A stretch of 64,000 nucleotides of DNA from Verrucomicrobiota bacterium (GTDB lineage Bacteria; Verrucomicrobiota; Verrucomicrobiia; Palsa-1439). How positions within the stretch are numbered: the stretch's first letter is position 1; each line of letters begins with the position of its first letter. The notes below the pieces were generated by a model. That model did no database searches. It had not been told where the DNA came from and was given only the letters and a program-made list of their open reading frames with translations. Made by a program: the position numbers and the translations under genes. Positions 1,515 through 54,578 of this stretch are shown here, piece after piece. Where the stretch lies: the NCBI GenBank assembly GCA_037127585.1, contig JBAXYB010000002.1:3701-67700 (forward strand). Direction: 5' to 3'.

Positions 1515-1524
1515 AAGACGAGAA

Positions 1525-3445: not shown

Positions 3446-3547
3446 CCGGAATGCGACTGATCCTGATTCAAATGACATGCAAATTTCCTTCGGGTGAAGC
3501 GCGGCTTATACCACGAGATGCCCCGGGGACGAAAGGAAACGTGCCGG

Positions 3548-4075: not shown

Positions 4076-4112
4076 CGCGCGACCCAGCGTCCGCCAGCCG
4101 TTCTTCGTATGA

Positions 4113-4715
4113 TGGACGCCGTCCGGTCCCCAGAGAATCTACGCCGACTCCGCCGGCGGCGTTCGCCGGTCGGAGACAGCGTTCGCCTCGGCGATTGACG
4201 CCGCGCGCGTCCCGAGTCGGATCTTTGGGGTCCAAGATGCCGGGCGGGATGGCGAGCATCTGGAGCAGATACCGGCGGACCAGGTGGCGTGGGAGTTGGC
4301 GGAAAGTCGGAAACAGTTGGAGGATTTATTCCAGCGCCCCATCCGCGGCTTCGCCTATCCGTACAGCACGTACAGTCCGTCTGTGAAAGAGGAAGTTCGC
4401 CGGTAAGGCTCCGTCTACGCGCGGACGGCTATTCCCGGCCCCGAGTACGCCGTCGCACCGATCAACGTCCCCTCGGTCTTTCCACCCACTGACCCCATGG
4501 AGTTTGGGACCACGACACATCGGTTGAACCCGCGCATTTGGGACGAGTTTAACCACACGAAGGTCACCGGCGGCGTGTTTCATTTCTGGGGACACAGTTA
4601 CGAATTCTTGAACGAAACGATGTGGAAAGAATTTGAAGCGAAGCGCGCCCGGCTCAGCGCCGATCCGGACGTTCGCTGGATGACCAACCTCGATCTCTTC
4701 AACGAACCGCGATAA
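4113..4715 (+). pseudogene. polysaccharide deacetylase-family gene remnant (C-terminal part only) interrupted by an in-frame TAA at ~4404-4406
   Basis: A single reading frame (phase of ORF 4497..4715) translates ...LEDLFQRPIRGFAYPYSTYSPSVKEEVRR*GSVYARTAIPGPEY...MEFGTT...GGVFHFWGHSYEF. FAYPYx...EEVRRaGY.yA.Tt.pG is the typical PF01522 C-terminal pattern. The stop falls where Ala/Gly-Tyr is expected. TGA at 4110-4112 closes the frame upstream, so no intact N-terminal catalytic half is present. Confidence 0.5.
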
Positions 4716-5688: not shown

Positions 5689-6398
5689 TTGTATTTGTAT
5701 GCCTGCAATGCCGGCGCGAAGAAATCAAAATCGTGCACGCCGGTATCGGTCTGCCACCGGCCAATCACGTCGGGACGCACCGGAATGCGGGCCAGCGGAA
5801 TCCCGAGAAACTTCTCCAGGCGCTTGAGCGTTTTCTCCTGGTGCAGGACAAAATCCTCGAAGCGCACTTCGATCCAGTGCGCCGGGCGCGGTGTGGCTTT
5901 CACGAGATCGTATTGATACTTCCAGGAAATCGCGCGCCGGCGCCGTTCGTCGTCCGTTACCGGGTACTTGATTCCGAAACCTCGCAGATCGTCCGTCACG
6001 TGGTGGCCGATGATGCAATCCCGTGGGTCACGAATCCAGAAGATATATTTGATGTCCGGGAACAAGCGTTGGATCCACGGATACGCCAGCGTCGTCTCCG
6101 GTATCTTCCAGCCCCGGTGATCCGCGGCACTTTTCAGGACGGACTTCAAATACGAGTCGATGAGGCGCTGGAACTTGGCCGGAATTCTCTTTTTGTGTAA
6201 CGCGCTGAAATCCCAGTTCAACTCGCCCAGCCATTTGACGTGGGGCGCGAGGACCCGGCAAGCGTCATACATTTCTTCCGGCGGGAGGAGATCGCCGGAC
6301 ACGTTCAGCGGTGCGCCCATGTCCACGCCGCTGGCCGACAGCGTGTGCGACATCGCGCGCGTGCCGGAATGGCCCCGGCCAATGACGGTGACCAGCAT
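5685..6398 (-). CDS. PAPS-dependent sulfotransferase (Sulfotransfer_3 / Stf-type)
   Basis: ORF 5685..6608. Internal ATG at 6398 abuts the stop of the upstream gene. 5'-PSB motif GRGHSGTRAM and 3'-PB motif WIRDPRDxIIGH are present. Confidence 0.8.
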   Translation of the reverse strand: MLVTVIGRGHSGTRAMSHTLSASGVDMGAPLNVSGDLLPPEEMYDACRVLAPHVKWLGELNWDFSALHKKRIPAKFQRLIDSYLKSVLKSAADHRGWKIPETTLAYPWIQRLFPDIKYIFWIRDPRDCIIGHHVTDDLRGFGIKYPVTDDERRRRAISWKYQYDLVKATPRPAHWIEVRFEDFVLHQEKTLKRLEKFLGIPLARIPVRPDVIGRWQTDTGVHDFDFFAPALQAYKYK

Positions 6399-6399
6399 C

Positions 6400-7818
6400 T
6401 CAGATCTTCGATCCGCGTTGGGTTTCGTGTTCCTTGCGGACGGCGTTCGCCTGCAACTTTTGCGCGGCGACCATCGAGCCGATGTACATCGAATCGTAGG
6501 CCTGCTGCGAGGTCTTGAATGGCCCGAATTCATTGCCGTGCCAGTTGAGGTTTGTGAACATCGGGTTCGGTCGGCCGGTCTCTTTCTCGCGCTTGGCGAT
6601 CCACGCATTCATCCGCGCATCGAGCAGCTTCACGATCTCCGGTTCCTTCTTGGCGAGGTTGTGATTTTCCAATGGATCGCGCACGAGGTCGTAGAGTTCG
6701 ACTTCCGGTTTGAAATGGAAGTCCGGTTCCAAGGCGCGGATGTATTTCCACTGCGGTGTCCGCCAACCGTGTTTCCGCATCCACGTGCATTCCGTGATGT
6801 AAAACTCCGGCTCCACCTCACGCACTTTACCGCGCATCACCGGCGCGAGACTCCGCCCGTTGTATTTGATGCCGGTTTTGACGCCCATCAGGTCGAGAAT
6901 CGTCGGCGTCGTGTCCTTGGCTTGCGTGATGTCGGCGAACCGTTTCCCCGCCGGCACCTTGCCTGGCCAGACAAACGCCAGCGGCAACACCAATGTCGGC
7001 TCATACAAACCGTGGTGATCAAAGTAGCATTCGTGTTCATCAAGCGTCTCGCCGTGGTCGGCGGTGATGACTACCAGCGTGTCTTCGGTCAACCCGAGCG
7101 CGGTGATCTGCGCGAACAGATTCGCAATGGCCGCGTCCATGTACGCGACCGCCCCATCGTACTGGGCGTTCACGTATTCCGCGTCGGTGCAACCCTCTGG
7201 CAACCAGCTCGTGATGTAATCGCGAAACGGCTTGAACGCCTTCATCTTGTCCAGCGAATGATTACCGGGGTCGCTCTCGTTACCTTGGTAGAACATCCGC
7301 TCGAACGGCAACGGCGGCAGATACGGCGAGTGCGGATCCATGTGGCGCAAGAAAAGGAAAAACGGCTTGTCGTCACCGGCGAGCCGCGTCAACTCCGGGA
7401 TTGTCACCTTGTTCAACTCTTCCGCCTTCGGACTCCGGCCGCCCTGCGTGCCGGGGCCCCAGCCGGGAAATTCGAGGTACTTCTGAAACCCGCGCGAAGC
7501 CGGGTTGCCGCCAAACCCGACGCACGTCGTCTGGTAACCGGCCTCGCCGAGAATTTCCGCCAGTGTTTTCACGTGCGCCCCCAGCGGGCCGGCATGCCGG
7601 AGCGCCACCACATCCGTCCCGAAACAATCCATCCCGGTAAACATCGAGCTGTAGCCCGGCGTCGTCGGGATGTGCGGACTGAAATGACTCTCAAACACCG
7701 TCCCTTGCGCCGCGAACTTGTCGATATGCGGCGTTGTCAGCCGGTGATACCCGTACAAACTCATGTGGTCCCGCCGCAGACTGTCGATCCCGAACAGAAT
7801 TAGATTTGGTTTTTTCAT
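6400..7818 (-). CDS. sulfatase-family (alkaline phosphatase superfamily) protein lacking the formylglycine motif (T-T-P-G-Y in place of C/S-x-P-S-R); cytoplasmic
   Basis: 472 aa. Sulfatase signatures GIDSLRRD, LFLRHMDPHSPY, VVITADHGE and YDLVRDPLENHNLA are present. No signal peptide. The nucleophile position carries Thr. Confidence 0.8.
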   Translation of the reverse strand: MKKPNLILFGIDSLRRDHMSLYGYHRLTTPHIDKFAAQGTVFESHFSPHIPTTPGYSSMFTGMDCFGTDVVALRHAGPLGAHVKTLAEILGEAGYQTTCVGFGGNPASRGFQKYLEFPGWGPGTQGGRSPKAEELNKVTIPELTRLAGDDKPFFLFLRHMDPHSPYLPPLPFERMFYQGNESDPGNHSLDKMKAFKPFRDYITSWLPEGCTDAEYVNAQYDGAVAYMDAAIANLFAQITALGLTEDTLVVITADHGETLDEHECYFDHHGLYEPTLVLPLAFVWPGKVPAGKRFADITQAKDTTPTILDLMGVKTGIKYNGRSLAPVMRGKVREVEPEFYITECTWMRKHGWRTPQWKYIRALEPDFHFKPEVELYDLVRDPLENHNLAKKEPEIVKLLDARMNAWIAKREKETGRPNPMFTNLNWHGNEFGPFKTSQQAYDSMYIGSMVAAQKLQANAVRKEHETQRGSKI

Positions 7819-9580: not shown

Positions 9581-10690
9581 TTATTGGTCGCGCGGGTCGC
9601 GGTTGAGCGACGGGAGCGGATGCGGGCGCACGAGCGTGCCGCCTTGTTCGTAGGACTCAATCGCCGCGAACGTGTATTCGAGCGTCGCCAACGCATCCCG
9701 CCCGGACGAGCGCAGGGCGTGTTTCGGCACGCGATTCGTCAGGTCTTCAAGATAGGCGTGGATGCGCGTCGGAAACGTCGCGCCGAAATCTTTGACGCCG
9801 GTATCCGTGACAACCGGGGTGGGTTGCTGGCCGAGGCCGAACGACTGGCCTGCCGCGGGGGCCGGGTAGTAGGTCAGTTTCTCGGTGACGTTCTCGATGC
9901 AGAACGTGCCTTTCGTGCCGCCGAGTTCAAAACTCCACCAACCGCCCAACCCCATAGTCGCGTCGCCGCGCGAACTAAAAAGATAGCCGATGGCGCCGCT
10001 CTGGAATTTCACGTGGACGCTGGCGATCGACACCATTAAATCCGCGGCATGCCGGCGCACGCTGGGGCGATCCATGAACGCCTGGATGTGCGTGATGTCG
10101 CCGCAGAAATGCCGGAGCAAACTGAACGGGTGCGCGAGAAACGCCTTGAGATGGGCGTAGGGGAAGCCGTCGAAATTCGGACCCGCGCCGGCTTTGTAGG
10201 TGTCTTCGCCGCCGACGAAGCCCGCCCGGTGCAGACAGTAAATCTGTTCACCGATCTTGCCGTCCGCCATCAACTGCTTCGCCTGCCGGGCCGGTTCGGT
10301 GAAAAAGTGGTTCAGGTTGCAGCCGAGGTACAAATCCTTTTCCGCGGCGAATTTCACCAAATCGCGCGCTTCCTGGATGTCATTGGAAATGGGTTTTTCC
10401 ACCAGCACATTCTTGCCGGCGGCGAGGGCAAGCATCGCGGGCGCGAAATGCCAACTGCCGTTTTCGCTGCCGCCCGTCGAAACATCGACGATGTCCAACT
10501 CGGGATGCGCGGCGAGCATGTCCTCGAGCCGGTAGTAGGCTTTGACTTTGTGCTTGGCGGCGACTTCATCCGCGCGGCTCTTGACCACATCGCAAACGGC
10601 GACAAGTTTCGCGAGCGCGTCCGTCGCATAACTCTGCGCGTGTGTCTGCCCGATGCCTTTTAATCCAACGACTCCGACGTTTAATGCCAT
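9581..10690 (-). CDS. Gfo/Idh/MocA-family oxidoreductase (paralog of 4699..5688)
   Basis: ORF 9581..10783. Start at Met32 (MALNVGVVGLKGIGQ). VEKPISNDI ... LGCNLNHFF closely parallels the 4699..5688 product. Confidence 0.85.
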   Translation of the reverse strand: MALNVGVVGLKGIGQTHAQSYATDALAKLVAVCDVVKSRADEVAAKHKVKAYYRLEDMLAAHPELDIVDVSTGGSENGSWHFAPAMLALAAGKNVLVEKPISNDIQEARDLVKFAAEKDLYLGCNLNHFFTEPARQAKQLMADGKIGEQIYCLHRAGFVGGEDTYKAGAGPNFDGFPYAHLKAFLAHPFSLLRHFCGDITHIQAFMDRPSVRRHAADLMVSIASVHVKFQSGAIGYLFSSRGDATMGLGGWWSFELGGTKGTFCIENVTEKLTYYPAPAAGQSFGLGQQPTPVVTDTGVKDFGATFPTRIHAYLEDLTNRVPKHALRSSGRDALATLEYTFAAIESYEQGGTLVRPHPLPSLNRDPRDQ

Positions 10691-10781
10691 GGTGATTTCC
10701 TTTGTTCGACGAGTCGCGACAGTAGCGGACAACCGGCGACGTGTCCTTGACAATCCCGCCAAACATCTGGACGATCCTGCC

Positions 10782-11645
10782 ATGGCTCAACACCTGCGTG
10801 GCGCGGACCTTTTTTCCGACCGGCATTTTCGGCTGCACGTCATGCGGCTGCCGCAACACGGTGCGTCGCGGGAACAACACACGCATGACTTCAATGAATT
10901 AGTGGTAATTCTGGCCGGCCACGGCCAACATGAAGTGGGCCGGGAAGTCTATGACATCAGTGCCGGCGATGTGTTCGCGCTTTTGGGCGACGCGAGTCAT
11001 TGCTACCCCGAGGTCAAAAACCTCTCGCTGATCAATATCCTGTACGATCCCGCCACCCTGCGTTTCCCCCGGGCCGACCTCGGCGCGGTGCCGGGATATC
11101 ACGCGCTGTTCGAGGTCGAACCGCGGCTCCGGCAACGCCAACGGTTCCAAAACCGGCTCAAGCTCAACATGACGGAACTCGGACAACTCGCGAAGTTGAT
11201 CGCTGATTTGGAAGCCGAGCTGCGCGCCAAGACGCCCGGCTCGCGCTTCCTCGCGACCGCACACTTGATGCGCATCATTGGTTTTTTGGCGCGGGCCTAC
11301 AGCCAGATTCCGGTCACGCAGCGCCGCCCGGTCACTCAACTCAGCGAACTGCTCGGTTATATGGAACAGCATTTCACCGAACCGTTGACCATCGGCAATC
11401 TGGCCCGCGCGGCGCACATGTCGGAGACGTCATTGTTTCGGCAATTCCGTCAGGTCATGGGCCGGTCGCCGATTGACTACTTGATCCGGTTGCGCATTCA
11501 CAAAGCCGCCCAACTGTTGCGCCGGGAACAGATGCGCGTGAAAGAGGCCAGCGCGGCGGTTGGTTTCACCGACAGCAACTATTTCACCCGGCAATTCGCC
11601 AAGGTCATGAGCGTCAGCCCCCGCGAATATCAGCGGCGGAAATAG
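10782..11645 (+). CDS. AraC-family transcriptional regulator with N-terminal cupin sensor domain
   Basis: ORF 10653..11645. Start chosen at Met44 (10782), divergent from the operon at 10690. C-terminal double HTH (SLFRQFRQVMGRSPIDYL ... NYFTRQFAKVMSVSPREYQ). Confidence 0.8.
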   Translation: MAQHLRGADLFSDRHFRLHVMRLPQHGASREQHTHDFNELVVILAGHGQHEVGREVYDISAGDVFALLGDASHCYPEVKNLSLINILYDPATLRFPRADLGAVPGYHALFEVEPRLRQRQRFQNRLKLNMTELGQLAKLIADLEAELRAKTPGSRFLATAHLMRIIGFLARAYSQIPVTQRRPVTQLSELLGYMEQHFTEPLTIGNLARAAHMSETSLFRQFRQVMGRSPIDYLIRLRIHKAAQLLRREQMRVKEASAAVGFTDSNYFTRQFAKVMSVSPREYQRRK

Positions 11646-11653
11646 TCTCGGCT

Positions 11654-12652
11654 TTACGGGGTGGATTTTTTTGCGGGCGCATTCGTGGCCGGGAAGGCGC
11701 CGCGCAAGAGCCAATGTTTTTTGAGGCCTTGCACGAGGTTGTCGGTGTCGACCACCAACGTCGAGATGCCGGTCAGGATTTGGTCGTTGGATTGGACTTG
11801 GGAATTCAGGTTGCCGGTGATCGAGGCGAGGTTGAGCAGGGTGGCGTTGAGGCCGAACACAAGCTCATTGATCTGCGCGGAGAGATTGGTGGTGATAAGC
11901 CAGTCGCCCAGCGAACCGGTGGGATTGGTGAGGTTGCCGGTGATGAGGGTGGCGTTGCTCAAGACCGGCGCGAGTTGCGCGGTTGTGCGGTCGAGACTGG
12001 CCATCAGGGTGGCGCTGTTGGTGACGAGAATATTGGCATTGTCGAGGACGACGTTGAGGCGATTGGTGAGCGCGAGGATGTTCGGCAAGGCGCCTTCGAC
12101 TTGGTTTAGCAGCTTCTCGGCGCGTTCGGTCACCCCGGCGGATTCGTCGGGCTGGAGGAAGACGCCTTTGGGCGCGAGGGTGAGCGCAACCATCTGGCTG
12201 TTGACGAGCACTTCGTGGGGCCGGTTGAGCCGGTCGGTCACAGTCGGGACGCCGGTCAGGCCCTTGGTGACTTCGAGTTGCCGGCCCATCAGACCGACGT
12301 TGACGACTTTGATTTTCGAGTCGGACAGGATGTAGCCGTAGTAGGGCCGCTTGATTTCGACGCCGACGAAGACGTTGTAGTACGCGCCGGGCGGTTCGGC
12401 CTCGATGACCGTGATGGCGCCGACGTCGAAGCCCATCAGCTTGACCGGCGCGCCGACTTCGAGACCGTCGGCTGTTTGGACGAACGTGAAGTAGGGGCAG
12501 CGCGGCACCCGCCAGCCGCGCCGTTCGGACAGGTGATAGAGGTAGTAGCCAAACCCCGCCAGCAACAGCAGCAGCGCCACCACCACAAACACACCCACGA
12601 CGCGCTGGGTGCGCTCGGGGGTCGTCTCATCCACTGTTCGTTGTTCGTTCAT
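11654..12652 (-). CDS. mlaD: MlaD / MCE-domain protein (outer-membrane lipid asymmetry ABC system substrate-binding component)
   Basis: ORF 11654..12964. Start at Met105 (12652) gives an N-terminal TM helix followed by an MCE domain (VKLMGFDVGAITVIE). Overlaps the mlaE stop. Confidence 0.8.
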   Translation of the reverse strand: MNEQRTVDETTPERTQRVVGVFVVVALLLLLAGFGYYLYHLSERRGWRVPRCPYFTFVQTADGLEVGAPVKLMGFDVGAITVIEAEPPGAYYNVFVGVEIKRPYYGYILSDSKIKVVNVGLMGRQLEVTKGLTGVPTVTDRLNRPHEVLVNSQMVALTLAPKGVFLQPDESAGVTERAEKLLNQVEGALPNILALTNRLNVVLDNANILVTNSATLMASLDRTTAQLAPVLSNATLITGNLTNPTGSLGDWLITTNLSAQINELVFGLNATLLNLASITGNLNSQVQSNDQILTGISTLVVDTDNLVQGLKKHWLLRGAFPATNAPAKKSTP

Positions 12653-13443
12653 CGTCCGAAATATCCGGCGAGAAATACCGCGTCGAGCACCACGCACAAC
12701 GCGAACGCTTCCACCACTGCGCGCGTCGTCGCCGCCGGGAACTGCTCGATCTTCAGCATTCCCTCCAACCCGTGATAGCAACTCACAAGACCGATGACGA
12801 TGCCAAACAACGCCGCCTTCAACCCGATCAACACGAAATCCATCCAGTGCATCGCTTCCGCGAGCTGCGCGCAATACGCGCTTGCCCGCAAGGGCACGTT
12901 CTGGATAAACGCCACGAGGTACCCACTGGCCAGCGCGATGGCGATCAGATAGATCGTCAAACAAAATACGGACACTCCCATCGCCACCACCCGCGGCGCC
13001 ACCACGTCGCGCATTGTCCGCCGACCGAGCCGGTCGACAGACTCCGCCTTCCCGCGCATCGCGACCGCGCCGAGTTCAACGACCGTGGCCGCCCCCGCCC
13101 GCGCCGTCACGAGAAACGCCGTCAGCAACGGGCCGAGTTCGCGCAACACCACCGTCACCATCACCGTTCCAATGTAGCGTTGCGCGCTGACTTGCCGGAG
13201 CAGCGCCACCGCTTGCCCGATCACCAACAACCCCAACGCCACGCCGATGAAGCCGGTCAGCGGTAATTGCCGGACCCCGCATCGCCAGATTTCCCGGCTT
13301 GTCGCCGCGCGCTGCATGGCCCGCAATGGTTTCGGCACCACGAGCGCCGCCGCCAACGTCGCGCGCGCAAACCGCCAGCGGTGCCCCAACCCCGACGGCG
13401 ATCGGAGCGCGCGCAGACCAACGTTACCTATCCAAGTTTGCAT
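12649..13443 (-). CDS. mlaE: MlaE-type ABC transporter permease
   Basis: 264-aa polytopic membrane protein with MlaE/Ttg2B family conservation. Confidence 0.85.
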   Translation of the reverse strand: MQTWIGNVGLRALRSPSGLGHRWRFARATLAAALVVPKPLRAMQRAATSREIWRCGVRQLPLTGFIGVALGLLVIGQAVALLRQVSAQRYIGTVMVTVVLRELGPLLTAFLVTARAGAATVVELGAVAMRGKAESVDRLGRRTMRDVVAPRVVAMGVSVFCLTIYLIAIALASGYLVAFIQNVPLRASAYCAQLAEAMHWMDFVLIGLKAALFGIVIGLVSCYHGLEGMLKIEQFPAATTRAVVEAFALCVVLDAVFLAGYFGR

Positions 13444-14288
13444 GTCGTGTCGAGCAGCGCGCCGTACCGGAGGTTGCGCGTGCTCACGGCCAACTCATAC
13501 ACGCTCAACGCTTCCATCGCAAATGCCAATGCGGCCCCGCCGGCCACAATGATGTCGGCCCGGTCGGCTGGCAGGCCGGGGACTTGCCGGCGTTCGGTGA
13601 GTGACATGGCGTTGAGCCGGGCGACAAGCGCTAGAACTTCGTCGAGTGTTTTGACGTTGCCGATTTTAACTAACGTGAGGTTGGCTCCGCCGGTCGCGAT
13701 GAACTTGCGGCCGGTGGCGTTGTAATCGCGCAGCGTTGACCGGTAGGTTGTGCGGAGAAATTCGGCGAGCGCCGGGAAGTCGCCGCCGAAGCGTTCGGTC
13801 ATCCGCACGGCGCCGAGCGGCAAGCTTTGGTGGCGCTCGATTTTGCCGACTGCGCCTTGGATGAATTCGACGCTGCCGCCACCAATATCCATCACGAGCA
13901 ACCGGCTCTTCGCCAAAGCCGGGTCGCTGGACACGCCGCGAAAGATCAACTCTGCTTCGCGTTCGCCGGTGATGACTTCGACTTCGAGTCCGCATTGCCG
14001 GCGGACGGCGTCGAGGAATTCTTGCTGGTTGTCAGCGTCGCGCACGGCACTGGTCGTGATGGCGCAGATACCGGTGACTGATTGTCCCCGGGCCTCGGTC
14101 ACGTAGTCGGCAATCGTCTGGACGGTGCGCGCGATGGCGGGGCCGGTGAGTTGGCGAGTTGCATTGACACTTTCGCCGAGGCGCGTGGTTTTGTCCTTAG
14201 CGACGAGGGAGACGACTTGACCGTCATTCACGTCGGCGATGAGGAGTTTGACGGTGTTCGTACCGATGTCGATGACGGCGCGGCGCAT
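13428..14288 (-). CDS. ppx: Ppx/GppA-family phosphatase (exopolyphosphatase N-terminal domain only)
   Basis: 286 aa. Actin-like ATPase fold motifs (VIDIGTNTVKLLIAD ... LVMDIGGGSVEF). Confidence 0.8.
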   Translation of the reverse strand: MRRAVIDIGTNTVKLLIADVNDGQVVSLVAKDKTTRLGESVNATRQLTGPAIARTVQTIADYVTEARGQSVTGICAITTSAVRDADNQQEFLDAVRRQCGLEVEVITGEREAELIFRGVSSDPALAKSRLLVMDIGGGSVEFIQGAVGKIERHQSLPLGAVRMTERFGGDFPALAEFLRTTYRSTLRDYNATGRKFIATGGANLTLVKIGNVKTLDEVLALVARLNAMSLTERRQVPGLPADRADIIVAGGAALAFAMEALSVYELAVSTRNLRYGALLDTTCKLG

Positions 14289-14370
14289 GGAGGGGAGGTT
14301 ACTCGGTTCACGGTTCGCGGTTCAAGGTTGTTGCTGTCAACCCTGAACCGAGAACTTCCTTGAAAAAAGT

Positions 14371-14405
14371 CTTGCCTGCCGGGGGGCTTGTGATATTTTT
14401 CACGA
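14371..14405 (+). promoter_or_regulatory. candidate sigma-70 promoter for the atp operon (TTGCCT -35, ~16-17 nt spacer, TGtGATATT extended -10)
   Basis: Read from the sequence upstream of atpZ. Also a 12-bp stem hairpin (GGTTCAAGGTTG/CAACCCTGAACC) at ~14310-14345 in the ppx/atp divergent region. Confidence 0.25.
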
Positions 14406-14464
14406 ACTTTGCGCCGCCCAAGTTTGCTTGCGAGTCGGTCCGGGTTGCATGGGATGTTTTCCAG

Positions 14465-14674
14465 ATGAAACTACCGGGCGCGGCGCGTTACATGGCCTTG
14501 GGCATCCAGATGGTCATTGTGACGGCGGTCAGTGCCGCCATTGGGTACTGGCTGGATTTGAAAACTGGGAAAGAGCCGATTTTTTTGATCGTGTTTTTCT
14601 TCCTCGGGTCGTTTGGCGGGATTGCGGTCGTTTGGCGGGCCATGGATCAGGGCGATGGCGCGAAGCGGCCCTGA
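14465..14674 (+). CDS. atpZ: AtpZ-like small membrane protein (putative F0F1-ATPase-associated subunit)
   Basis: ORF 14360..14674. Internal Met gives a 69-aa two-TM protein directly upstream of atpI/atpB, as in atpZ-I-B-E-F-H-A-G-D-C operons. Confidence 0.5.
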   Translation: MKLPGAARYMALGIQMVIVTAVSAAIGYWLDLKTGKEPIFLIVFFFLGSFGGIAVVWRAMDQGDGAKRP

Positions 14675-14686
14675 CCACATATATAT

Positions 14687-14965
14687 ATGGATAGCGCGGC
14701 ATGGTTGGGAGTCACAGAAGGGCTCGGCATCGGGTTGATTTACGGGCTGTGGCAGGCGTGGGATTTGCGCCGCGGACCGAGTGCGACGCCGACGTTGCAA
14801 CGGACGTTGTTTGCCGGCGCACGGATGTTGGTTTTGATGAGCTTGTTGTTGGTGGCGTTGAAGTACGGCGGCGCGGATAAGATTTGGTTGGTAGTGGGTG
14901 TGGCGGTAGGATTTACGGCGGTATTTGTGTGGCGGATGAAGACGGCGTTAGCGAAGAAAAAGTGA
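14687..14965 (+). CDS. atpI: ATP synthase protein I-like small membrane protein
   Basis: 92-aa hydrophobic protein immediately upstream of atpB. Confidence 0.45.
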   Translation: MDSAAWLGVTEGLGIGLIYGLWQAWDLRRGPSATPTLQRTLFAGARMLVLMSLLLVALKYGGADKIWLVVGVAVGFTAVFVWRMKTALAKKK

Positions 14966-14971
14966 ACGAGT

Positions 14972-16020
<1,049 letters not shown>

Positions 16021-28592: not shown

Positions 28593-31500
28593 TTAGGAAC
28601 AGCCCATGGAGTTGCCACAGTTCAGGCACTTGTAGCACGCGCCGTTGCGGACGGTGATCGCGCCGCAGGTGTCGCAGGTCGGGGCATCGGTCATGAAGTG
28701 CGCGATGGTTTTGCTCAGGGCTTGGACGCTGGTCAACGGCCGGGCGGCGACTTCGCCGGTCTGTTCCAGATCCTGGACGGGCCGGTTGACGGCTTTTTGC
28801 TCTTGTTCGGCGACTTCTTTGAGTGGCAATTCGGTCTGGCCGGCGTTGGGCGAGTTGGCTTCGCGGTAGCCGGGGATGAACTGGCAAGCCAGCCAACGGA
28901 AGAGGTAGTCGGTGATCGACTTGGCAATCGGAATGTCCGGGTTCTTCGTGAAGCCGGACGGTTCGAACCGTTGGTGGGCGAATTTTTTGACGAGCGTTTC
29001 GAGCGGCACGCCGTATTGAAACGCCATGCTGACGAGGGTGCCGATGGTGTCCATGAGGCCGCCGATGGTCGAGCCTTCTTTGGCCATGGTGATGAACAAC
29101 TCGCCGGGGGTGCCGTCTTCGTAGAGCCCGACGGTGATGTAGCCTTCGTGGCCGGCAATGTCGAATTTGTGCGTGACCGCCTGCCGCGTGTCCGGCAACC
29201 GATGGCGCAGGGGCGCGGCGGCGCGGGTGCGCAGTTCGTTAATTTCGGAATCGAGTTCGAGGATGCGCGATTTGAGTTCGTCCGTTTCCTGAACGGTCGG
29301 GGCGGGCTTGCCGCTGTTGGTCTTGGACGTGTTGAGAGGCTGGGAACGTTTCGAGCCGTCCCGGTAGATCGCAACCGCCTTGAGGCCGAGCTTCCAGCCT
29401 TCAATGTACGTCTGCATGATGTCGTCAACCGTGGCGTCCTGGGGCATGTTGACGGTCTTGGAGATGGCGCCGCTGAGGAACGGTTGCGCCGCGGCCATCA
29501 TCTTGAGGTGCGCCAGATAATGGATGGTGCGTTTGCCTTTGGCGGGTTTGAACGCGCAGTCGAACACCGGCAGGTGTTTGTCTTGCAGATCCGGCGCGCC
29601 TTCGATGGTGTCGTTCGCGTCGACGAACTTCACAATGTCGGTGATCTGGGACTCGCTGTAGCCGAGTTTGCGCAAGGCCATCGGCACGGTCCGGTTGACG
29701 ATTTTCAGCATCCCGCCGCCGGCGAGGAGTTTGTATTTCACGAGCGCGATGTCGGGTTCGACGCCGGTGGTGTCGCAGTCCATCATGAACGCGATCGTGC
29801 CGGTCGGCGCGAGGACGGTGACTTGGGAGTTGCGATAGCCGTACCGGCGACCGAGCTCGACGGCTTCGTCGCCACAACGTTGCGCGGCAGCCCGGAGGTA
29901 GTCGGGGCAGCTCGGGTGAATGCGTTTCACGGAGTCGCGATGTTGTTCCATGACTTGGAGCATCGGCTCGCGGTTCTTCTCGAAGCCTTCAAACGCGCCG
30001 AGCTTCTCGGCGATCCGTGCGGATTGCACGTAGGCTTGGAGGTGGATGATGGCCGTCAACGCGCCGGCAATGGAGCGTCCTTCGTCGCTGTCGTAGGGCA
30101 GACCGAGCGCCATGAGCAGCGAACCGAGGTTCGCGTAGCCGAGACCGAGCGGGCGGAAGAGATGGCTGTTCTGCGCGATGTCATTGGTCGGATAACTCGC
30201 GTTATCGACCATGATTTCCTGGGCGGTAATGAAGATTTCAGCGGCGGCTTTGTAGCGTTCGACATCAAAGGTGCCGTCGTCGCGGAGGAACTTCATCAAA
30301 TTCAGCGAGGCGAGGTTGCACGCGCTGTTGTCGAGGAACATGTACTCGGAGCACGGGTTGCTGGAGTTGATCGGTGCGGTGTTTTTGCAGGTGTGCCAGC
30401 GTTGGATGGTGTCCTCGTACTGGACGCCGGGATCGCCGCAGGTCCACGTGCCTTCGGCGATGCCTTGCATCAACTCGCGGGCTTTGTACGTCGGGCCGGG
30501 CTTGCTGGGGTCGGTGACCCAGTGGGTCGTCCAATCCTTGTCGTCGATGACGGCGCGCATGAACTCGTCGGTCACGCGGACGCTGAGGTTTTCATTTTGG
30601 AACGAGACGGAGCCGTAGGCGTCCCCGTTGAAGTCGCCCGAATAGCCGGCTTCAATCAACGACCACGCTTTCCGCTCTTCCTTCGGCTTGGCTTCGATGA
30701 AGTCCTTGATGTCCGGATGCCAGACTTTCAAGGTGTTCATCTTCGCCGCGCGCCGGGTCTTGCCGCCCGATTTCACCACGCTGGCGATCGAATCGAACAC
30801 GCGCAGGAACGACATCGGCCCGCTCGGCCGGCCGCCGCCGGACAGTTTCTCGCGCCGGCTGCGCAACGTGGAGAGATCGGTGCCGGTGCCGCTGCCATAC
30901 TTGAAGAGCATCGCTTCGGCCCGCGCCAATTCCATGATGTCTTCCATCGTGTCGCCCACCGATTGGATGAAACAGGCTGAGCACTGCGGATACTCGTATT
31001 GCGTGGTGGCCTGTTTGATCTGGTTTGTCTGGCGGTCGAAGCAGAAGTTACCGGGGCCGCTGTTTTTCCCGATGTGATATTCGTGATAGAGACCGCAGTT
31101 GAACCAGACCGGCGAGTTAAACGAGCCGTACTGGTTGACGCACAACCAGGTCAACTCGTCATAGAACGCATCGGCGTCCTTATCGCTGGCGAAATAGCCC
31201 TGCGCGCGACCCCAGTCTGAGACGGTGTTAGTGACGCGGTGGACGAGTTGCCGGACGCTGTGCTCGCGTTCGCTGGTGCCGTTCTCGCCGTAGAAATATT
31301 TTGAGACCACGACCTTCGTCGCGAGAATCGACCAGTTCTTCGGCACTTCGACGTTGTCCTGTTTGAAGATCGTCTTGCCGGCGTCATCGGTAATCTCGGC
31401 TTTGCGGCGTTCCCATTCGAGTTCGTCGAACGGTTTCACGCCGGCCCGACTGAAAACGCGCGGCACAATTAGCCCATTTTTCTTGGCGCTCGGTTTGGAT

Positions 31501-31607
31501 CGTTTACTCGGACTGCTGATGGTGGGAATATCGGCTTCAACTTCTTTACGGCTTAACTTTGTTTTATGCACAGAAAATACTCCTGTGCTCTGCTTCAGAT
31601 TGATCAC
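28593..31607 (-). CDS. nrdJ: class II adenosylcobalamin-dependent ribonucleotide reductase
   Basis: 1004 aa. B12-dependent RNR conserved core plus a C-terminal Cys-rich Zn-ribbon (CDTCGAITVRNGACYKCLNCG). GTG start preceded by AGGAGG at a 5-nt spacing. Confidence 0.9.
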   Translation of the reverse strand: MINLKQSTGVFSVHKTKLSRKEVEADIPTISSPSKRSKPSAKKNGLIVPRVFSRAGVKPFDELEWERRKAEITDDAGKTIFKQDNVEVPKNWSILATKVVVSKYFYGENGTSEREHSVRQLVHRVTNTVSDWGRAQGYFASDKDADAFYDELTWLCVNQYGSFNSPVWFNCGLYHEYHIGKNSGPGNFCFDRQTNQIKQATTQYEYPQCSACFIQSVGDTMEDIMELARAEAMLFKYGSGTGTDLSTLRSRREKLSGGGRPSGPMSFLRVFDSIASVVKSGGKTRRAAKMNTLKVWHPDIKDFIEAKPKEERKAWSLIEAGYSGDFNGDAYGSVSFQNENLSVRVTDEFMRAVIDDKDWTTHWVTDPSKPGPTYKARELMQGIAEGTWTCGDPGVQYEDTIQRWHTCKNTAPINSSNPCSEYMFLDNSACNLASLNLMKFLRDDGTFDVERYKAAAEIFITAQEIMVDNASYPTNDIAQNSHLFRPLGLGYANLGSLLMALGLPYDSDEGRSIAGALTAIIHLQAYVQSARIAEKLGAFEGFEKNREPMLQVMEQHRDSVKRIHPSCPDYLRAAAQRCGDEAVELGRRYGYRNSQVTVLAPTGTIAFMMDCDTTGVEPDIALVKYKLLAGGGMLKIVNRTVPMALRKLGYSESQITDIVKFVDANDTIEGAPDLQDKHLPVFDCAFKPAKGKRTIHYLAHLKMMAAAQPFLSGAISKTVNMPQDATVDDIMQTYIEGWKLGLKAVAIYRDGSKRSQPLNTSKTNSGKPAPTVQETDELKSRILELDSEINELRTRAAAPLRHRLPDTRQAVTHKFDIAGHEGYITVGLYEDGTPGELFITMAKEGSTIGGLMDTIGTLVSMAFQYGVPLETLVKKFAHQRFEPSGFTKNPDIPIAKSITDYLFRWLACQFIPGYREANSPNAGQTELPLKEVAEQEQKAVNRPVQDLEQTGEVAARPLTSVQALSKTIAHFMTDAPTCDTCGAITVRNGACYKCLNCGNSMGCS

Positions 31608-31686
31608 AGCTGCCTCCTAATTCTGCCCCGCGTCGTAATTCTGCAATTTCTGGGAAAGAGGAAACGTGCCCCAAACCCCCTCTAAT

Positions 31687-35898: not shown

Positions 35899-36471
35899 TC
35901 AATAACAACCGCGCAATTTCTCCTTCAACGCTTCCCGGGCCCGATTCAGCAACGATTTCACCGCCGACACCGAACACCCCAGCACCACGGCGATTTCCTC
36001 ATACGCCAGACCCTCGAATCGGCAGAGAATCACCGCCGTCCGTTGCGCCTCCGGCAACGTCTGGATGGCGGCGTGAATCGTGTCCTGCAACTCCCGCTCG
36101 ACAACTTCCTGCGCCGGATCCGCTGTCCGCGCATCGGCAAACTGGCGAGCACTTTCCTCGTTTTCGGTGAGCGCGTCGAGCGACTCCGTCGCCCGTCGGC
36201 CGCGGCGCCGGTATTCATTGAGAACCGTATTGCGCGTGATGGTGAATAGCCACGTCGTGAATTTCGCCGTCGCTTGATACCGGCCCGCCGACCGGAAGAC
36301 TTGGATGAAGACGCGCTGCGCGAGGTCTTCAGCTTCCCAGGCGTCGCCGATACTCCGGTAAATCATGTTGATGACGGGCCGCTGGTAGCGCTCGATCAAT
36401 TCGCGAAAAGCATCCTCATCGCCCTCTTTGACACGGGTCATGAGGACGAGATCGGTATCGTTGGAAGCCAT
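35899..36471 (-). CDS. ECF-subfamily RNA polymerase sigma-70 factor
   Basis: ORF 35899..36567. Start at Met33. Region 2 (FRELIERYQRPVINMIYRSIGDAWEAEDLAQRVFIQVF) and region 4 HTH (AQRTAVILCRFEGLAYEEIAVVLGCSVSAVKSLLNRAR). Confidence 0.8.
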   Translation of the reverse strand: MASNDTDLVLMTRVKEGDEDAFRELIERYQRPVINMIYRSIGDAWEAEDLAQRVFIQVFRSAGRYQATAKFTTWLFTITRNTVLNEYRRRGRRATESLDALTENEESARQFADARTADPAQEVVERELQDTIHAAIQTLPEAQRTAVILCRFEGLAYEEIAVVLGCSVSAVKSLLNRAREALKEKLRGCY

Positions 36472-36544
36472 CGCCAGCAAGATTAGCTGAAGGACTCCAA
36501 CACCGCAACGCCGGCAAGGTTGCGCGACGATAGGTTCGATCACG

Positions 36545-37339
36545 TCAACGAGAAGCGGGGTTAACAACCGGCAGTGTATCTATACAATAGCGGATGCTTT
36601 CTTCTAGGACTGGACCTGAACGAGCATTGATGTGGATTGAACGGACGCTATTCCACCAAAGGATTTCGTTGGTTTGCCCATCTACCAAGGCCACGATATT
36701 TTGCACTTGGCCGGGGGATTCGTAGAGCGGTGTCACCGCAACGCCAGTGGCGATGCCTGTGGCCACACCGATAAGGATTCCGAGTGCCATCTTGCCACGG
36801 CGCTTGTTACGTGCCATACGCGATTCGAGAAATACGGAACTATCCATCAAGAGGATCGCTGGAGCGTCTTGCAGGCCGAGAGCGATCTTCAGTTCCGTCA
36901 AACATTCGCCCATCTGATAATGAAATGGCACGGGCTGTTTACGTTGACGATCTTGCAAAATCTTAAAGCTCAGGAGCCAAAATTCATCCTGTACTGCCTG
37001 TAATGTTGTAGCTGTGTTTATATCAAATTGTGCCCAGTCCTCGTTCAGGCAAAGGGGTTGCGGTGAAGCGCGGAACGAGTAACCCCTCTCCGAAAAAACT
37101 TTCTCTACGGCAGCCGCAAGATTGGTCTTAACCAAATGCCCCTGGCGATCCATGTCGAGCGCATTCTGGGTTTTATCGGAATTACCTTTGATGGACAGTC
37201 GCGATGGAACTGCGGCAATTTCGCGATAGGCTGCAGGGTTCGTTCGAAACGACTCGTTAATTCGCAGTGGCGGCGCTTTGCAGCCAATCCAAAGACAAGC
37301 CGAAAGTAAAAAAAACACGCTGAACAGGATTCTTTTCAT
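36545..37339 (-). CDS. lipoprotein with C-terminal glycine-zipper segment, unknown function; lower GC than the surroundings
   Basis: 264 aa. Lipobox LLSAC. GILIGVATGIATGVAV glycine zipper near the C-terminus. By eye ~50 % GC. Confidence 0.55.
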   Translation of the reverse strand: MKRILFSVFFLLSACLWIGCKAPPLRINESFRTNPAAYREIAAVPSRLSIKGNSDKTQNALDMDRQGHLVKTNLAAAVEKVFSERGYSFRASPQPLCLNEDWAQFDINTATTLQAVQDEFWLLSFKILQDRQRKQPVPFHYQMGECLTELKIALGLQDAPAILLMDSSVFLESRMARNKRRGKMALGILIGVATGIATGVAVTPLYESPGQVQNIVALVDGQTNEILWWNSVRSIHINARSGPVLEESIRYCIDTLPVVNPASR

Positions 37340-52351: not shown

Positions 52352-53188
52352 ATGACTTCCCGCAGTATCGCGTTCGCGAACCAAAAAGGGGGCGTCGGCA
52401 AAACCACCACGGCAGTTAGCATGGCTGCGTGTCTCGCCGAACGCGGACAGCGCACGTTGCTCATCGACTTGGATCCACAGGCGAACGCCACCAGCGCCCT
52501 CGGCCTGGAGAAACTTACCGGCGGGAGTATCTATCAAGCGTTGCTGGGGCCGGCCGCGCTTGCGGATTCGATTCGTCCCAGCGGCATTGAACATCTCGAC
52601 GTCATTCCCAGCGAAGTTGATTTGGCTGTGGCCGAAGTGGATGTCGCGCGCACCGAAAACTACCTTCAGCGACTGCGCACCGCCGTGAACCCAATCCGGG
52701 CCCTGAACCGGTACGACTTTATTCTCATCGACTGCCCACCGTCGCTCGGCATCCTGACCATGAACGCCTTGGCGGCCGTTGACCGCGTGATTGTGCCTAT
52801 TCAATGCGAATACTTCGCGCTCGAAGGGTTGGCGGTCATCATGCGCGTCATCGGCCAGATCAAGACGAGCGGCGCGAATCCCGAACTCGACATCCTCGGC
52901 GTGATCATGACGATGTACGATGGCCGGACGAATCTGGCGCAGCAAGTGGTTGGCGAAGTCCGCCGGCATCTGGGCGATAAAGTTTTTAAGACGCTCGTGC
53001 CGCGCACGGTCCGGTTGGCCGAAGCGCCCAGTTTCGGCAAACCGATCAACATCTATGATTCCGGCTCGTATGCGGCCGCGGTTTACCGGTCGTTGACGGA
53101 AGAATTGTTAGCGCGGAATGCGCCCCCGGCAGCCGCGCCGGTCGTCCCCCCAATAAAAAAAGCGGACGTTAAGCCCAGTTTGAAGTAG
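52352..53188 (+). CDS. parA: ParA/Soj-family partition ATPase (no parB follows)
   Basis: ORF 52280..53188. Start at Met25. Deviant Walker A KGGVGKTT. Ala/Pro-rich C-terminal tail. Confidence 0.85.
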   Translation: MTSRSIAFANQKGGVGKTTTAVSMAACLAERGQRTLLIDLDPQANATSALGLEKLTGGSIYQALLGPAALADSIRPSGIEHLDVIPSEVDLAVAEVDVARTENYLQRLRTAVNPIRALNRYDFILIDCPPSLGILTMNALAAVDRVIVPIQCEYFALEGLAVIMRVIGQIKTSGANPELDILGVIMTMYDGRTNLAQQVVGEVRRHLGDKVFKTLVPRTVRLAEAPSFGKPINIYDSGSYAAAVYRSLTEELLARNAPPAAAPVVPPIKKADVKPSLK

Positions 53189-53197
53189 GCGGGAAAC

Positions 53198-53218
53198 TGG
53201 TGCAGCCGGAGGATTCGA
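53198..53218. repeat. degenerate direct repeat of the tRNA-Arg 3' end (TGGTGCAGCCGGAGGATTCGA vs TGGTGCGGCCGGCGGGAGTCGA at 54235-54255): putative attR-like remnant
   Basis: 17 of 22 positions identical to the tRNA 3' end in the same orientation, ~1.04 kb away; the intervening DNA is low-GC. Confidence 0.45.
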
Positions 53219-53435
53219 CGCAGTCTCAACACGGCGAACAGAGACGTGGCCTCGGACCGCCCCTAAAAAACCCGGAGGGAGATTCTCACCACCGCCCCTC
53301 GTCGCCGCCCGCAGCAAGGAAACCCGCCGGACACCTACCGGACTGCGTAAATCATCGGCAGTACCGCCTTGCTGTGCACCCGCAACCGGTTCTGGAGCAT
53401 TGCCAACGGACATAACCCGGCGTTAGCATAAAGCT

Positions 53436-54044
53436 ATGAGCGCATCCAATCGCCAGAAGAAGATCCTCGCTTTTTTCAAAGTTCCTTTTTCTCCAAAAAT
53501 TTCCGTCGGTGCCGCAGGGTGGGAGATTGCCGAACTAATGGAGGACGACGCATGTCGCGAACGATGGCGTCGCTACCTTTATCTGACAAAAGACTTTGGT
53601 TCCACCTCCGACCAATTGATTCCGGTCAGTGAGAAAGAAATTGAGGCAGTAACTATTCCTGAGGGGTGGAGTTCTTCGGAGGCAATCAAAGAATTTCAGA
53701 GTGAGGTAGTCGCTCAAGAGCTAGTTGACCACTCGCCATTTGACCAGCCGCAGCCGGTTGTTGAGTTTCCGCACCGTAGTTTCATTTTCACAGGCAAATT
53801 CGCTTTTGGTTCCCGTAATGCTTGCCAAGCAGCTGTGATTGAACGCGGCGCGTTCGCGCCAGACCAGAAATCCATAACGCACGAAATTAACTATCTAGTT
53901 ATCGGCGCGGAGGGAAGCAAGGCGTGGAAGCGCGGTTCATACGGCAACAAGATTGAGGCAGCAATTCTGGCTCGCCGTGAATACGGCTCGCCTGCGATTA
54001 TTTCCGAGAAGCATTGGACCGCATCTCTAACAAGAACATCCTAA
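53436..54044 (+). CDS. BRCT-domain protein (C-terminal BRCT, N-terminal domain unknown), low-GC gene
   Basis: 202 aa. C-terminal FIFTGKFAFGSRNACQAAVIERGAFAPDQKSITHEINYLVIGAEGSKAWKRG ... AIISEKHW aligns with the LigA-type BRCT pattern. By eye ~48-50 % GC. Confidence 0.6.
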   Translation: MSASNRQKKILAFFKVPFSPKISVGAAGWEIAELMEDDACRERWRRYLYLTKDFGSTSDQLIPVSEKEIEAVTIPEGWSSSEAIKEFQSEVVAQELVDHSPFDQPQPVVEFPHRSFIFTGKFAFGSRNACQAAVIERGAFAPDQKSITHEINYLVIGAEGSKAWKRGSYGNKIEAAILARREYGSPAIISEKHWTASLTRTS

Positions 54045-54234
54045 GCCAGCCTCCACCACCGGCACCCTGAGCCGCCGGCCCGGGGCTTGAGCAAGCCACC
54101 ACTGGGGCGATAATCCCGGGCGCAGGACTTTGGGTGATAACTTGGGTGATAACTCGGTTTTTGCGCATTTGGGGAGCGTCGCGACTGCTTGGGCGCAGTT
54201 CGCACAAGTTGCTTACTGGCAGGACTAAATCGAG

Positions 54235-54311
54235 TGGTGCGGCCGGCGGGAGTCGAACCCACAACCTTTGCCTTCGGAGGGCAACGCTCTATCCAGTTGA
54301 GCTACGGCCGC
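54235..54311 (-). tRNA. tRNA-Arg (anticodon CCG), 77 nt, with encoded CCA
   Basis: Minus-strand sequence GCGGCCGTAGCTCAACTGGATAGAGCGTTGCCCTCCGAAGGCAAAGGTTGTGGGTTCGACTCCCGCCGGCCGCACCA folds as a cloverleaf (7-bp acceptor, D, anticodon stem TTGCC/GGCAA with loop CTCCGAA, T-arm GTGGG/CCCGC). Confidence 0.9.
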
Positions 54312-54405
54312 ACTTGTCAAACGCGGCGCACTCTAGCGGCGCCCGCGCCGCTGTTCAACCTCGAAAAAAGTGCGGCAAGTTTGGGGCGCTACTGGACGCT
54401 GTTAC

Positions 54406-54477
54406 TGTGGGAGCGCCCTTCCGGGCGCGATTTGCTCGAATGACCAACCCGGTCGCGCCCGGAAGGGCGCTCCCACA
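54406..54477. repeat. palindromic element family 2 copy 3 (TGTGGGAGCGCCCTTCCGGGCGCGA ... TCGCGCCCGGAAGGGCGCTCCCACA)
   Basis: 25-nt perfectly complementary arms and a 22-nt loop, between tRNA-Arg and rph. Confidence 0.7.
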
Positions 54478-54578
54478 ACTGGCCAGCCGGATTTTGATGG
54501 TGGTGTCAAAAGGCCCAAGCTAGGGATCGACCCAGAAATAACTTGCCGCTACTCGGCGCGCCGGTCATCCTTCGCGCC

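Follow-up and report, generated by a model that had tools for sequence, protein, structure and literature searches.

Genomic islands and prophage remnants of the tyrosine-integrase type occupy the 3' ends of tRNA genes, which they enter by a crossover in the T-loop. Here, we describe an islet that resembles them in a 64,000-nucleotide stretch of the genome of a Verrucomicrobiota bacterium (GenBank assembly GCA_037127585.1, contig JBAXYB010000002.1, positions 3,701 to 67,700 of the forward strand); "the window" refers to this whole stretch. The islet lies between a parA gene and the gene for tRNA-Arg(CCG), and carries a single gene whose product has a predicted BRCT domain. It shares with tRNA-targeted islands the insertion at the 3' end of a tRNA, a direct repeat of the tRNA 3' segment, the displacement of the original end to the far boundary, and absence from syntenic relatives. 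In composition the comparison is mixed, the cargo gene being atypical and the arms of host-like GC content. It differs from them in being only 1,037 bp long, with one gene and no integrase or other element gene, and in having a degenerate distal repeat (18/22).

Three other kinds of system should be kept in mind. The BRCT proteins of temperate phages, namely, orf2 of Vibrio phage K139 and its counterparts in Pseudomonas phages, are 35-38% identical to the window protein over residues 101-198, which cover the BRCT domain, and resemble it in size, in having two domains, and in a GC content below that of the surroundings; the phage genes are transcribed towards int and attP, and the window gene likewise towards the tRNA. 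The N-terminal domains, however, are unrelated, being of the NRQKK/GAAGWEI type in the window protein and of the "DELIGICKG..DG..E..FL..WL" type in the phages of Proteobacteria; moreover, the window gene has no adjacent repressor, and its product has no match to the PADLOC defence candidate PDC-S48. The C-terminal BRCT domain of the NAD-dependent DNA ligase LigA and that of RFC1 are the nearest solved structures and have the same fold, but the window protein possesses an additional N-terminal domain and lacks the catalytic domains of a ligase. Lastly, integron cassettes, and arrays of cassettes without a nearby integrase (defined as CALINs in PMC4889954), are like the islet in presenting a single promoter-poor open reading frame (ORF) in about 1 kb of DNA with variable neighbours, whereas the islet has no attC-like structure and its 22-nt target duplication is no integron signature.

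Evidence for an insertion at tRNA-Arg(CCG)

An earlier note, made from the letters of this DNA alone, had proposed that the segment is an insertion at the tRNA 3' end with a degenerate att-like duplicate. We find the same: about 1,037 bp of inserted DNA separate the original tRNA 3' end from the remainder of the gene. The locus is made up as follows.

52352-53188: parA, with the stop codon TAG at 53186-53188
53185-53197, no strand: ancestral flank of the tRNA 3' end, GTAGGCGGGAAAC, overlapping the parA stop codon and matching the flanks in L160 and L159
53198-53218, minus strand: displaced original 3' end of tRNA-Arg, from T-loop to CCA; the degenerate distal att-like repeat (18/22 columns)
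53219-53435, no strand: left non-coding arm of the insert, 62% GC, with a promoter-like site inside
53400-53429, in the left arm: promoter-like site, TTGCCA-18 nt-TAGCAT
53436-53750, plus strand: N-terminal part of the cargo protein, a family-specific domain of about 105 aa predicted to be all-helical
53751-54044, plus strand: C-terminal domain of the cargo protein, including the stop codon; phage-type BRCT by PHROG 3989, profile, and predicted fold
54045-54234, no strand: right non-coding arm of the insert, 62% GC, containing TTGGGTGATAAC twice in tandem
54235-54256, minus strand: 3' 22 nt of the tRNA, the proximal att-like repeat, part of the functional tRNA-Arg(CCG)
54235-54311, minus strand: functional tRNA-Arg(CCG) (ARAGORN; Rfam tRNA, 70.1 bits)

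The tRNA is where the earlier note had placed it, and is the only one that ARAGORN finds in the window. Between the stop codon of parA and the tRNA 3' end there are 1,046 nt. The repeat, TGGTGCAGCCGGAGGATTCGA, adjoins parA as had been described, at a distance of 9 nt rather than 10, and stands in direct orientation to the 3' 22 nt of the tRNA, with which it agrees in 18 of 22 columns (one gap, edit distance 4), where 17 of 22 had been counted. Viewed on the plus strand, the matched stretch runs from the CCA end through the acceptor stem and the T-stem into the T-loop.

Taken alone, the repeat is only weakly significant. A local alignment of the full tRNA against the window was discarded as a test, since equal or better scores occur elsewhere and the repeat is not outstanding; we therefore relied on an edit-distance search anchored to the 3' 22-mer, combined with order-2 Markov simulations. 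On both strands of the window, the repeat is the only site within four edits. The simulations lead one to expect 0.52 such sites per 64 kb over both strands, or about 0.004 per kb per strand, so that the chance of a match is about 0.4 over the whole window and about 0.004 when only 1 kb of the correct strand is considered. The similarity that the earlier note had relied on is therefore unique in the window but weak by itself.

The flank of the repeat decides the matter. Syntenic relatives were found by protein database and contig look-ups on ParA, and the empty-site test was done on two of them, L159 and L160 (loci used for comparison are given L numbers); a metagenome scan with ParA produced only relatives of 54% identity or less and was of no use for this test. 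In L159, a 249-kb JGI contig whose ParA is 79% identical, parA is followed by 151 nt, tRNA-Arg(CCG) on the minus strand, rph, trx, and genes for proteins of 164 and 423 aa, the last four being orthologous to window genes (64, 78, 51, and 72% identity, respectively). No BRCT gene was found between parA and the tRNA in L159. In L160, with a ParA that is 91% identical, the tRNA 3' end comes directly after parA and there is no BRCT gene. Both relatives are thus empty at the tRNA-Arg locus, as the insertion claimed earlier would have it. The junctions read:

Window: flank ...GTAGGCGGGAAAC, then the repeat, TGGTGCAGCCGGAGGATTCGAC
L160: flank ...GGCGGGAAG, then the tRNA 3' end, TGGTGCGGCCGGCGGGAGTTGAACC
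L159: flank ...GTAGGCGGG, then the tRNA 3' end, TGGTACGCCCGGTGGGAGTTGAACC

The bases on the 5' side of the window repeat (GTAGGCGGGAA) match those beside the genuine tRNA end in both L159 and L160, and the flank of the functional window tRNA, GGACTAAATCGAG, is unrelated to the relatives' tRNA flank. By our own estimate, an exact flank match of 8-9 nt at a fixed position has a chance of about 1e-4 or less. The repeat also occupies the position that the tRNA has in the empty-site relatives. Because its flank is homologous to the tRNA flanks of L159 and L160, the repeat is the displaced ancestral tRNA 3' end. Like recognized tRNA islands, then, the site possesses a tRNA-derived direct repeat at its distal boundary and is empty in relatives.

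One might still regard the repeat as a chance similarity and the BRCT gene as ancestral here and deleted in the relatives. The expected number of 22-mer matches in the window and the equally good full-tRNA scores elsewhere would allow this, but the flank is homologous to a real tRNA-end flank in two independent relatives, the orientation, side, and distance of the repeat are those expected of an att duplicate, and both relatives are empty at ParA identities of 91% and 79%. We consider this explanation highly improbable. The remnant is still 82% identical to the tRNA, whereas a comparison of parA in the window and in L160 finds only 58% identity at third codon positions; it would appear from this that the insertion is younger than the split of these two lineages.

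The right arm holds a further feature: TTGGGTGATAAC is duplicated in tandem at 54130-54153, at a distance of 82 nt from the 3' end of the tRNA. No other such tandem occurs in the window, where 0.05 would be expected by chance. These copies may be protein-binding sites of the lost element, of the arm type used by recombinases.

The cargo protein and its family

The ORF at 53436-54044 (plus strand, 202 aa) is the only convincing one between the parA stop codon and the tRNA. As the earlier note had observed, its GC content is low (50.2%, compared with 60.1% for the window), and ranks within the lowest 0.4% for stretches of its length (609 nt); both non-coding arms (53189-53435 and 54045-54234) are host-like at 62%. 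Low GC is no evidence of a recent arrival at this site. Across the family, the gene is below its flanks in 34/37 genomic loci, by 0.05-0.17, with a GC content at third codon positions (GC3) of about 0.5 in hosts of 60% GC, and the same is seen inside prophages and in fusions to LigA. Low GC is thus a trait of the family in every context and cannot be used to date its arrival in the window. Elsewhere in the window, the regions at about 31200-31650 and 36400-37000 have a GC content of 0.48-0.52, as low as that of the BRCT gene.

The protein is 100% identical to a protein of a metagenome-assembled genome from Verrucomicrobiota at NCBI, and belongs to a well-conserved family, with 170 clusters of full-length homologues of about 200 aa at 55-72% identity. 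For the window protein, Pfam returns no family at E<=0.1 (neither BRCT PF00533 nor a related family is passed), NCBIfam and PADLOC give nothing significant, and no PADLOC family is reached at E<=1. AlphaFold models it with a pLDDT of 89 for the whole protein and 84 for the N-terminal domain alone.

The assignment of the C-terminal half to BRCT, which the earlier note had made, is carried by fold and profile searches and not by Pfam. Foldseek matches the model to the BRCT domains of RFC1, XRCC1, and LigA with a probability of 1.0 and a TM-score (target) of about 0.5, and the profile of alignment A1 matches the BRCT domains of LigA (9vse_A, E=5e-5) and RFC1 (E=5e-3). Residues 88-200 match positions 185-294 of the 296 in PHROG 3989 (E=8.9e-26), a phage family of unknown function, while the N-terminal two thirds of that profile are unmatched. 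Model and profiles together show a predicted BRCT fold of phage type that is too divergent for the Pfam BRCT models. Residues T119, G120, and R127 are invariant in A1; conservation does not extend to the Lys that aligns with SKKT of RFC1, and we make no claim of 5'-phosphate binding from sequence. The earlier statement that stand-alone bacterial BRCT proteins are rare does not hold for this type, given the 170 clusters of full-length homologues and the occurrence of PHROG 3989 on over 50 viral contigs as well as in temperate phages of Vibrio and Pseudomonas that have been cultured.

The N-terminal half, with the motif NRQKK..GAAGWEI..W..Y..T.D, has no fold match in the PDB (best E=3) and is predicted to be a new helical domain of about 105 aa. 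It occurs in only 80 representative clusters among 1.84 billion proteins; of the lengths listed, most are about 100-260 aa. One protein of 1017 aa has the domain at residues 807-910, an arrangement that fits the fusions to LigA described below. We refer to the two domains together as the module. In the literature searched (BRCT with prophage or with defence, and K139 orf2), no experiment on any member of the family was found; one apparent match was a text artefact, "Brc_T12A."

Relatives in temperate phages

A full-length homologue of the PVC type (42% identity) is encoded on the viral contig L189, where the module gene comes third, after those for an S24 repressor and an SNase nuclease. In addition, more than 50 IMG/VR contigs encode proteins of about 210 aa that have the same BRCT subtype with a different N-terminal domain. 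Phage relatives reach 13-27 bits on the Pfam BRCT models, for which the cut-off is 21.3. When ten of the IMG/VR loci were tested, the same-strand upstream gene proved to be a CI-like repressor in six (five with an S24 domain, one with a helix-turn-helix only), and L169 has the same arrangement, with the repressor directly upstream. Overall, a CI-like repressor gene precedes the BRCT gene on the same strand in K139, Marin, L169, L173, L174, L181, L185, L187, and L190, and also in L189, where one gene intervenes.

Two cultured phages are the clearest examples. In Vibrio phage K139, a well-known phage of cholera (L214, NC_003313, 2841-3746), the lysogenic-operon promoter PL is followed by cI, orf2 (the BRCT gene), glo (phage exclusion), int, and attP, whereas in Pseudomonas phage Marin (L215, 3153-3803) the CI-like repressor is followed by the BRCT protein. 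Because the gene sits beside cI and the exclusion gene glo, an accessory or exclusion role for a protein expressed in the lysogen is probably indicated. PADLOC gives weak matches to PDC-S48 for L169 (3.5e-6) and K139 orf2 (3e-8). No repressor gene is present in the window islet. Taking the lysogeny operon, these weak PDC-S48 matches, and the cassette array described below, the family is a plausible candidate for a role in defence or anti-defence.

Stand-alone copies, cassettes, and islands

In the genome-collection scan, no genome has more than one full-length copy. Stand-alone copies have no conserved gene context; their neighbours include BrnT/BrnA (toxin-antitoxin), PDDEXK_3, YopA, and DUF6602. 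A tRNA within about 1.3 kb of the gene was seen in only 2/34 genome-collection loci scanned (L028 and L023), with a few others at 2.6-4.4 kb, and association with tRNAs was accordingly dropped as a family trait. In L072 (1483-2817), the nearest of the stand-alone homologues (72% identity) is followed by an ORF of 444 aa that has no Pfam or PADLOC match and contains an R-x4-H motif (RNQIIH) reminiscent of HEPN nucleases. In L008, the stand-alone gene (4822-5412) lies between direct repeats of 300 nt (4420-4719 and 5468-5767) that are 80% identical and spaced by 1,048 nt, and gene and repeats together are inside a repeat-rich (Asp/Gly-rich) host gene.

The locus L017 (5975-8556) is of a different kind. 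Here, the module gene is the first unit of an array with four attC-like sites, each GCCTAAC ... GTTAGGC in an imperfect hairpin of 103-104 nt (z about -4), at 6598, 7343, 7928, and 8454, and thus 745, 585, and 526 nt apart. GTTAGGC stands before the gene, and the first hairpin, of 104 nt, comes after it. By its sequence organization, the array would fit a CALIN. Probable attC-like sites also adjoin the gene in L019, L016, and L027, and intI was not seen near any locus inspected. In the window, GTTAGC sits 9 nt upstream of the ATG of the BRCT gene, and GTTAG(C/G) is found shortly 5' of the ATG in L001, L005, L017, L019, and L020.

Boundaries of a comparable kind are found at another type of RNA gene. 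In L216, whose ParA is 80% identical to that of the window, a 5.1-kb island (9894-15388) occupies the 3' end of the transfer-messenger RNA (tmRNA) gene (15033-15388, minus strand) and has at each boundary the terminal 22 nt of that gene, in identical copies. Its genes encode an AEP-TOTE/DEAD/DUF559 helicase, a DUF3368/UPF0175 pair, and a protein of 378 aa with no Pfam match. No recognisable integrase was found in this island; the 378-aa ORF was considered for this role and is not recognisable as one.

These loci raise the possibility that the window islet is a miniature single-gene cassette with no recombinase of its own, inserted in trans, either by integron-type capture, with a GTT of the T-loop serving as secondary site, or as a CIME-like unit flanked by att sites and moved by an integrase from elsewhere. 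The array in L017 headed by a homologue, the attC-like sites in L019, L016, and L027, and the GTTAGC before the window ATG are all in keeping with it, as is the cassette-like size of the insert (1,037 nt, close to the 1,048-nt repeat spacing in L008). Verrucomicrobia do carry integrons, and CALINs can arise through insertion at secondary sites (PMC4889954). The lack of a recognisable integrase in the L216 island leaves room for small units moved in trans, and the L017 cassettes point the same way. On the other side, structure scans found no attC-like hairpin in or around the window islet (fold z about 0.3-0.7, positive). An insertion mediated by IntI does not duplicate 22 nt of its target, and the degenerate repeat makes it unlikely that the unit is mobile now. 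We regard a trans-inserted cassette as possible, and well behind the reading that we prefer, in which the islet is what remains of a temperate element that had integrated into the tRNA.

Fusions to DNA ligase

In 12 genome-collection loci of PVC bacteria, the module is an in-frame C-terminal extension of the NAD-dependent DNA ligase, and in five more the gene comes directly after ligA, so that it is fused or adjacent to ligA in 17-18/37 loci. The fused ligA ORFs encode 940-1100 aa, of which the module accounts for 200 aa. They are listed here with the separate ORFs for a canonical LigA BRCT domain that lie downstream of some.

L007: fusion 2-1843; downstream BRCT ORF 1889-2104
L009: fusion 3436-6636
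L010: fusion 3772-6669
L011: fusion 994-4101
L012, L013, L015, L018, L021, L025: fusion
L014: fusion; downstream BRCT ORF 6570-6800
L024: fusion 265-3708; downstream BRCT ORF 3807-4082 (Pfam E=2e-17)

According to Pfam, L009 encodes a full LigA with its canonical BRCT domain followed by the module, while the fused ORFs tested in L014 and L010 have LigA without a canonical BRCT domain followed by the module. In L010, L014, L015, L018, L007, and L024, the LigA match to the L002 reference ends at residues 677-684, before the BRCT domain. The downstream ORFs in L007, L014, and L024 start just after the stop codon of the module, and the one in L014 is partly decayed. In L024, ligA carries an insertion of about 776 nt between imperfect direct copies, 34 nt long, of the ligA linker; their perfect core has 14 nt, ACAATTACTCACC. 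In seven of the fused ORFs (L007, L010, L013, L014, L015, L018, and L024), GC3 falls from about 0.8 to about 0.5 from 60-250 codons upstream of the module, inside ligA, which may reflect recombinational replacement or some constraint.

A separate family of proteins resembling the C-terminal half of LigA (Zn finger, HhH, BRCT) is encoded directly after the module in L009 (6623-7561), L021 (6752-7414), L025 (6660-7073), and L035 (3676-4452). Its members are 40-53% identical to each other and about 30% to LigA, with host-like GC3. Campbell-type integration was considered for these ORFs and set aside, since they form a conserved family of their own and are not displaced remnants.

One should not conclude that the window protein is a ligase. 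It has no adenylation, OB, Zn-finger, or HhH domain, it scores 13-16 bits on the NCBIfam LigA models against cut-offs above 369, and ligA was not found in the window. The name "NAD-dependent DNA ligase" that several homologues bear in their source (JGI) is a misnomer.

The association with LigA is the basis of another explanation, namely, that the protein is a vertically inherited accessory subunit of LigA, a housekeeping factor that moved position with no mobile biology, its low GC being an intrinsic constraint. The single full-length copy per genome, the frequency of fusion or adjacency to ligA, and the low GC3 in every context can be cited for it, as can the identity matrices: module and LigA identities partly co-vary (r=0.51) and recover the same clades, so that much of the history of the family would seem to be vertical. 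Such a history does not account for the displaced tRNA end and the empty sites, which record an insertion event; the family is also represented in the immunity region of the prophage L189, in the cassette array of L017, and beside toxin-antitoxin, PDDEXK, and YopA genes, and its BRCT subtype is phage-borne in other phyla. We think it unlikely that the gene in the window has this purely vertical origin.

The duplications flanking the module suggest yet another route without any recombinase, that is, homology-facilitated illegitimate recombination, with the tRNA as the anchor and an illegitimate join at the other end. In its favour, the duplications vary in length (22 nt here, 34 nt and imperfect in the L024 ligA, 300 nt in L008), and in the LigA fusions the low-GC3 tract begins 60-250 codons upstream, as if the donor ligA had come along. 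However, the remnant in the window ends exactly in the T-loop and includes the CCA, which is reportedly the classic block of tRNA-targeting tyrosine integrases; a 22-nt 3'-end repeat likewise bounds the tmRNA island of L216, and a donor with a tRNA-Arg-linked copy was not found. We rate this route as quite improbable. Recombinase-free insertion and a purely vertical history as a LigA subunit are thus both less likely than integration of a temperate element.

Origin and possible function

On balance, and with moderate confidence, we favour the view that the islet is the last remnant of a temperate element integrated at the tRNA, most likely a prophage. A temperate element would have inserted into the 3' end of tRNA-Arg(CCG) by site-specific recombination, with the crossover in the T-loop, and would have supplied the 3' end of the present functional tRNA, while the original 3' end (53198-53218) and its flank would have been pushed against parA. 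Everything but one gene of the lysogeny operon would later have been deleted. Relatives of that gene are habitually found in the lysogeny operons of temperate phages, where they are transcribed along with the repressor gene and in the direction of int and attP, as the window gene is towards the tRNA. The varied surroundings of the stand-alone copies and the array in L017 speak for mobility of the module. The extent of the remnant, from CCA to T-loop, has its parallel in L216, where the repeats likewise are the last 22 nt of the tmRNA 3' end. We infer that an integrase was involved and that the element was a prophage.

Several points weigh against this view. The main weakness is that the islet retains no fragment of int and no other phage gene: as the earlier note had stated for the integrase, only the BRCT ORF is present, with no integrase, excisionase, repressor, or other phage gene, and blastn and tblastx searches of the arms against all fetched loci revealed nothing meaningful and no pseudogene fragment. 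Equally, the gene ends just 190 nt from the tRNA, a gap from which int would need to have been removed cleanly. Adjacency to a tRNA is atypical of the family, both arms are host-like in GC content, the window protein has no PADLOC match, and the literature searched holds no experiments on the family. The largely vertical history suggested by the co-variation of module and LigA further weakens a purely phage-cargo view.

As regards function, the repeated fusion to LigA, in some cases to a ligase that has no canonical BRCT domain, argues by Rosetta-stone reasoning that the module may work with LigA on nicked or 5'-phosphorylated DNA. In the mechanism that we envisage, the protein would act with LigA at ligatable nicks or ends of DNA, probably as an accessory or exclusion factor expressed in the lysogen. 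We offer only tentatively the more definite suggestion that it is a partner of LigA that binds DNA nicks or ends and is used by temperate elements. A wider proposal is more doubtful still: the NRQKK-BRCT module would be a mobile, phage-derived partner domain of LigA, expressed from lysogens, cassettes, and islets, that binds nicks or ends with a 5'-phosphate and could control their sealing (e.g., by blocking circularisation of superinfecting phage DNA), and it would have entered ligA in several lineages of Verrucomicrobiota, replacing the native BRCT domain, whose coding remnant lies downstream.

Neighbouring features of the window

The earlier note had called parA an orphan; it is not a gene left behind by the element. 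The window ParA is a clear ATPase of the ParA/Soj type (AAA_31, E=9e-58), and its orthologues, 79-91% identical, occur at the same place in genomes that have no islet. No ParB motif was found in the window with a regular-expression search of the six-frame translation, and parB was not adjacent to the parA orthologues in any of the five relatives inspected (L157, L158, L159, L161, and L216), whose other neighbours vary between genomes. Since parB is also missing beside the parA of the relatives, its absence is a property of the lineage, and parA is a conserved chromosomal gene beside the insertion site and outside the islet.

Two palindromic structures lie elsewhere in the window. The spacer from the tRNA to rph contains, at 54403-54481, a long hairpin formed by an inverted repeat of 22 nt without mismatches, GGGAGCGCCCTTCCGGGCGCGA. 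The corresponding spacer of L159 is shorter and does not have it, and the window holds no second copy; it looks like an insertion of the REP (repetitive extragenic palindrome) or MITE (miniature inverted-repeat transposable element) kind, or like a bidirectional terminator. The scan for attC-like sites also returned a strongly folding palindrome of 115 nt, GCTCAAC ... GTTGAGC, at 13503-13617, with a dG of -58.6 kcal/mol (RNA parameters).

Significance

The islet shows how small a tRNA-targeted insertion can become, with one gene and a decayed att scar left, and how comparison of flanks with empty-site relatives can validate a repeat that is weak on its own. Elements of this kind are known, and the more useful lead is the cargo, which belongs to an uncharacterised family. 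This family joins phage lysogeny modules, a cassette array, and LigA, and so would link a phage gene expressed in lysogens to nick sealing by the host. The LigA fusions may represent a natural case of domain replacement in an essential enzyme, and the BRCT family offers a candidate, open to testing, for a new function in exclusion or defence.

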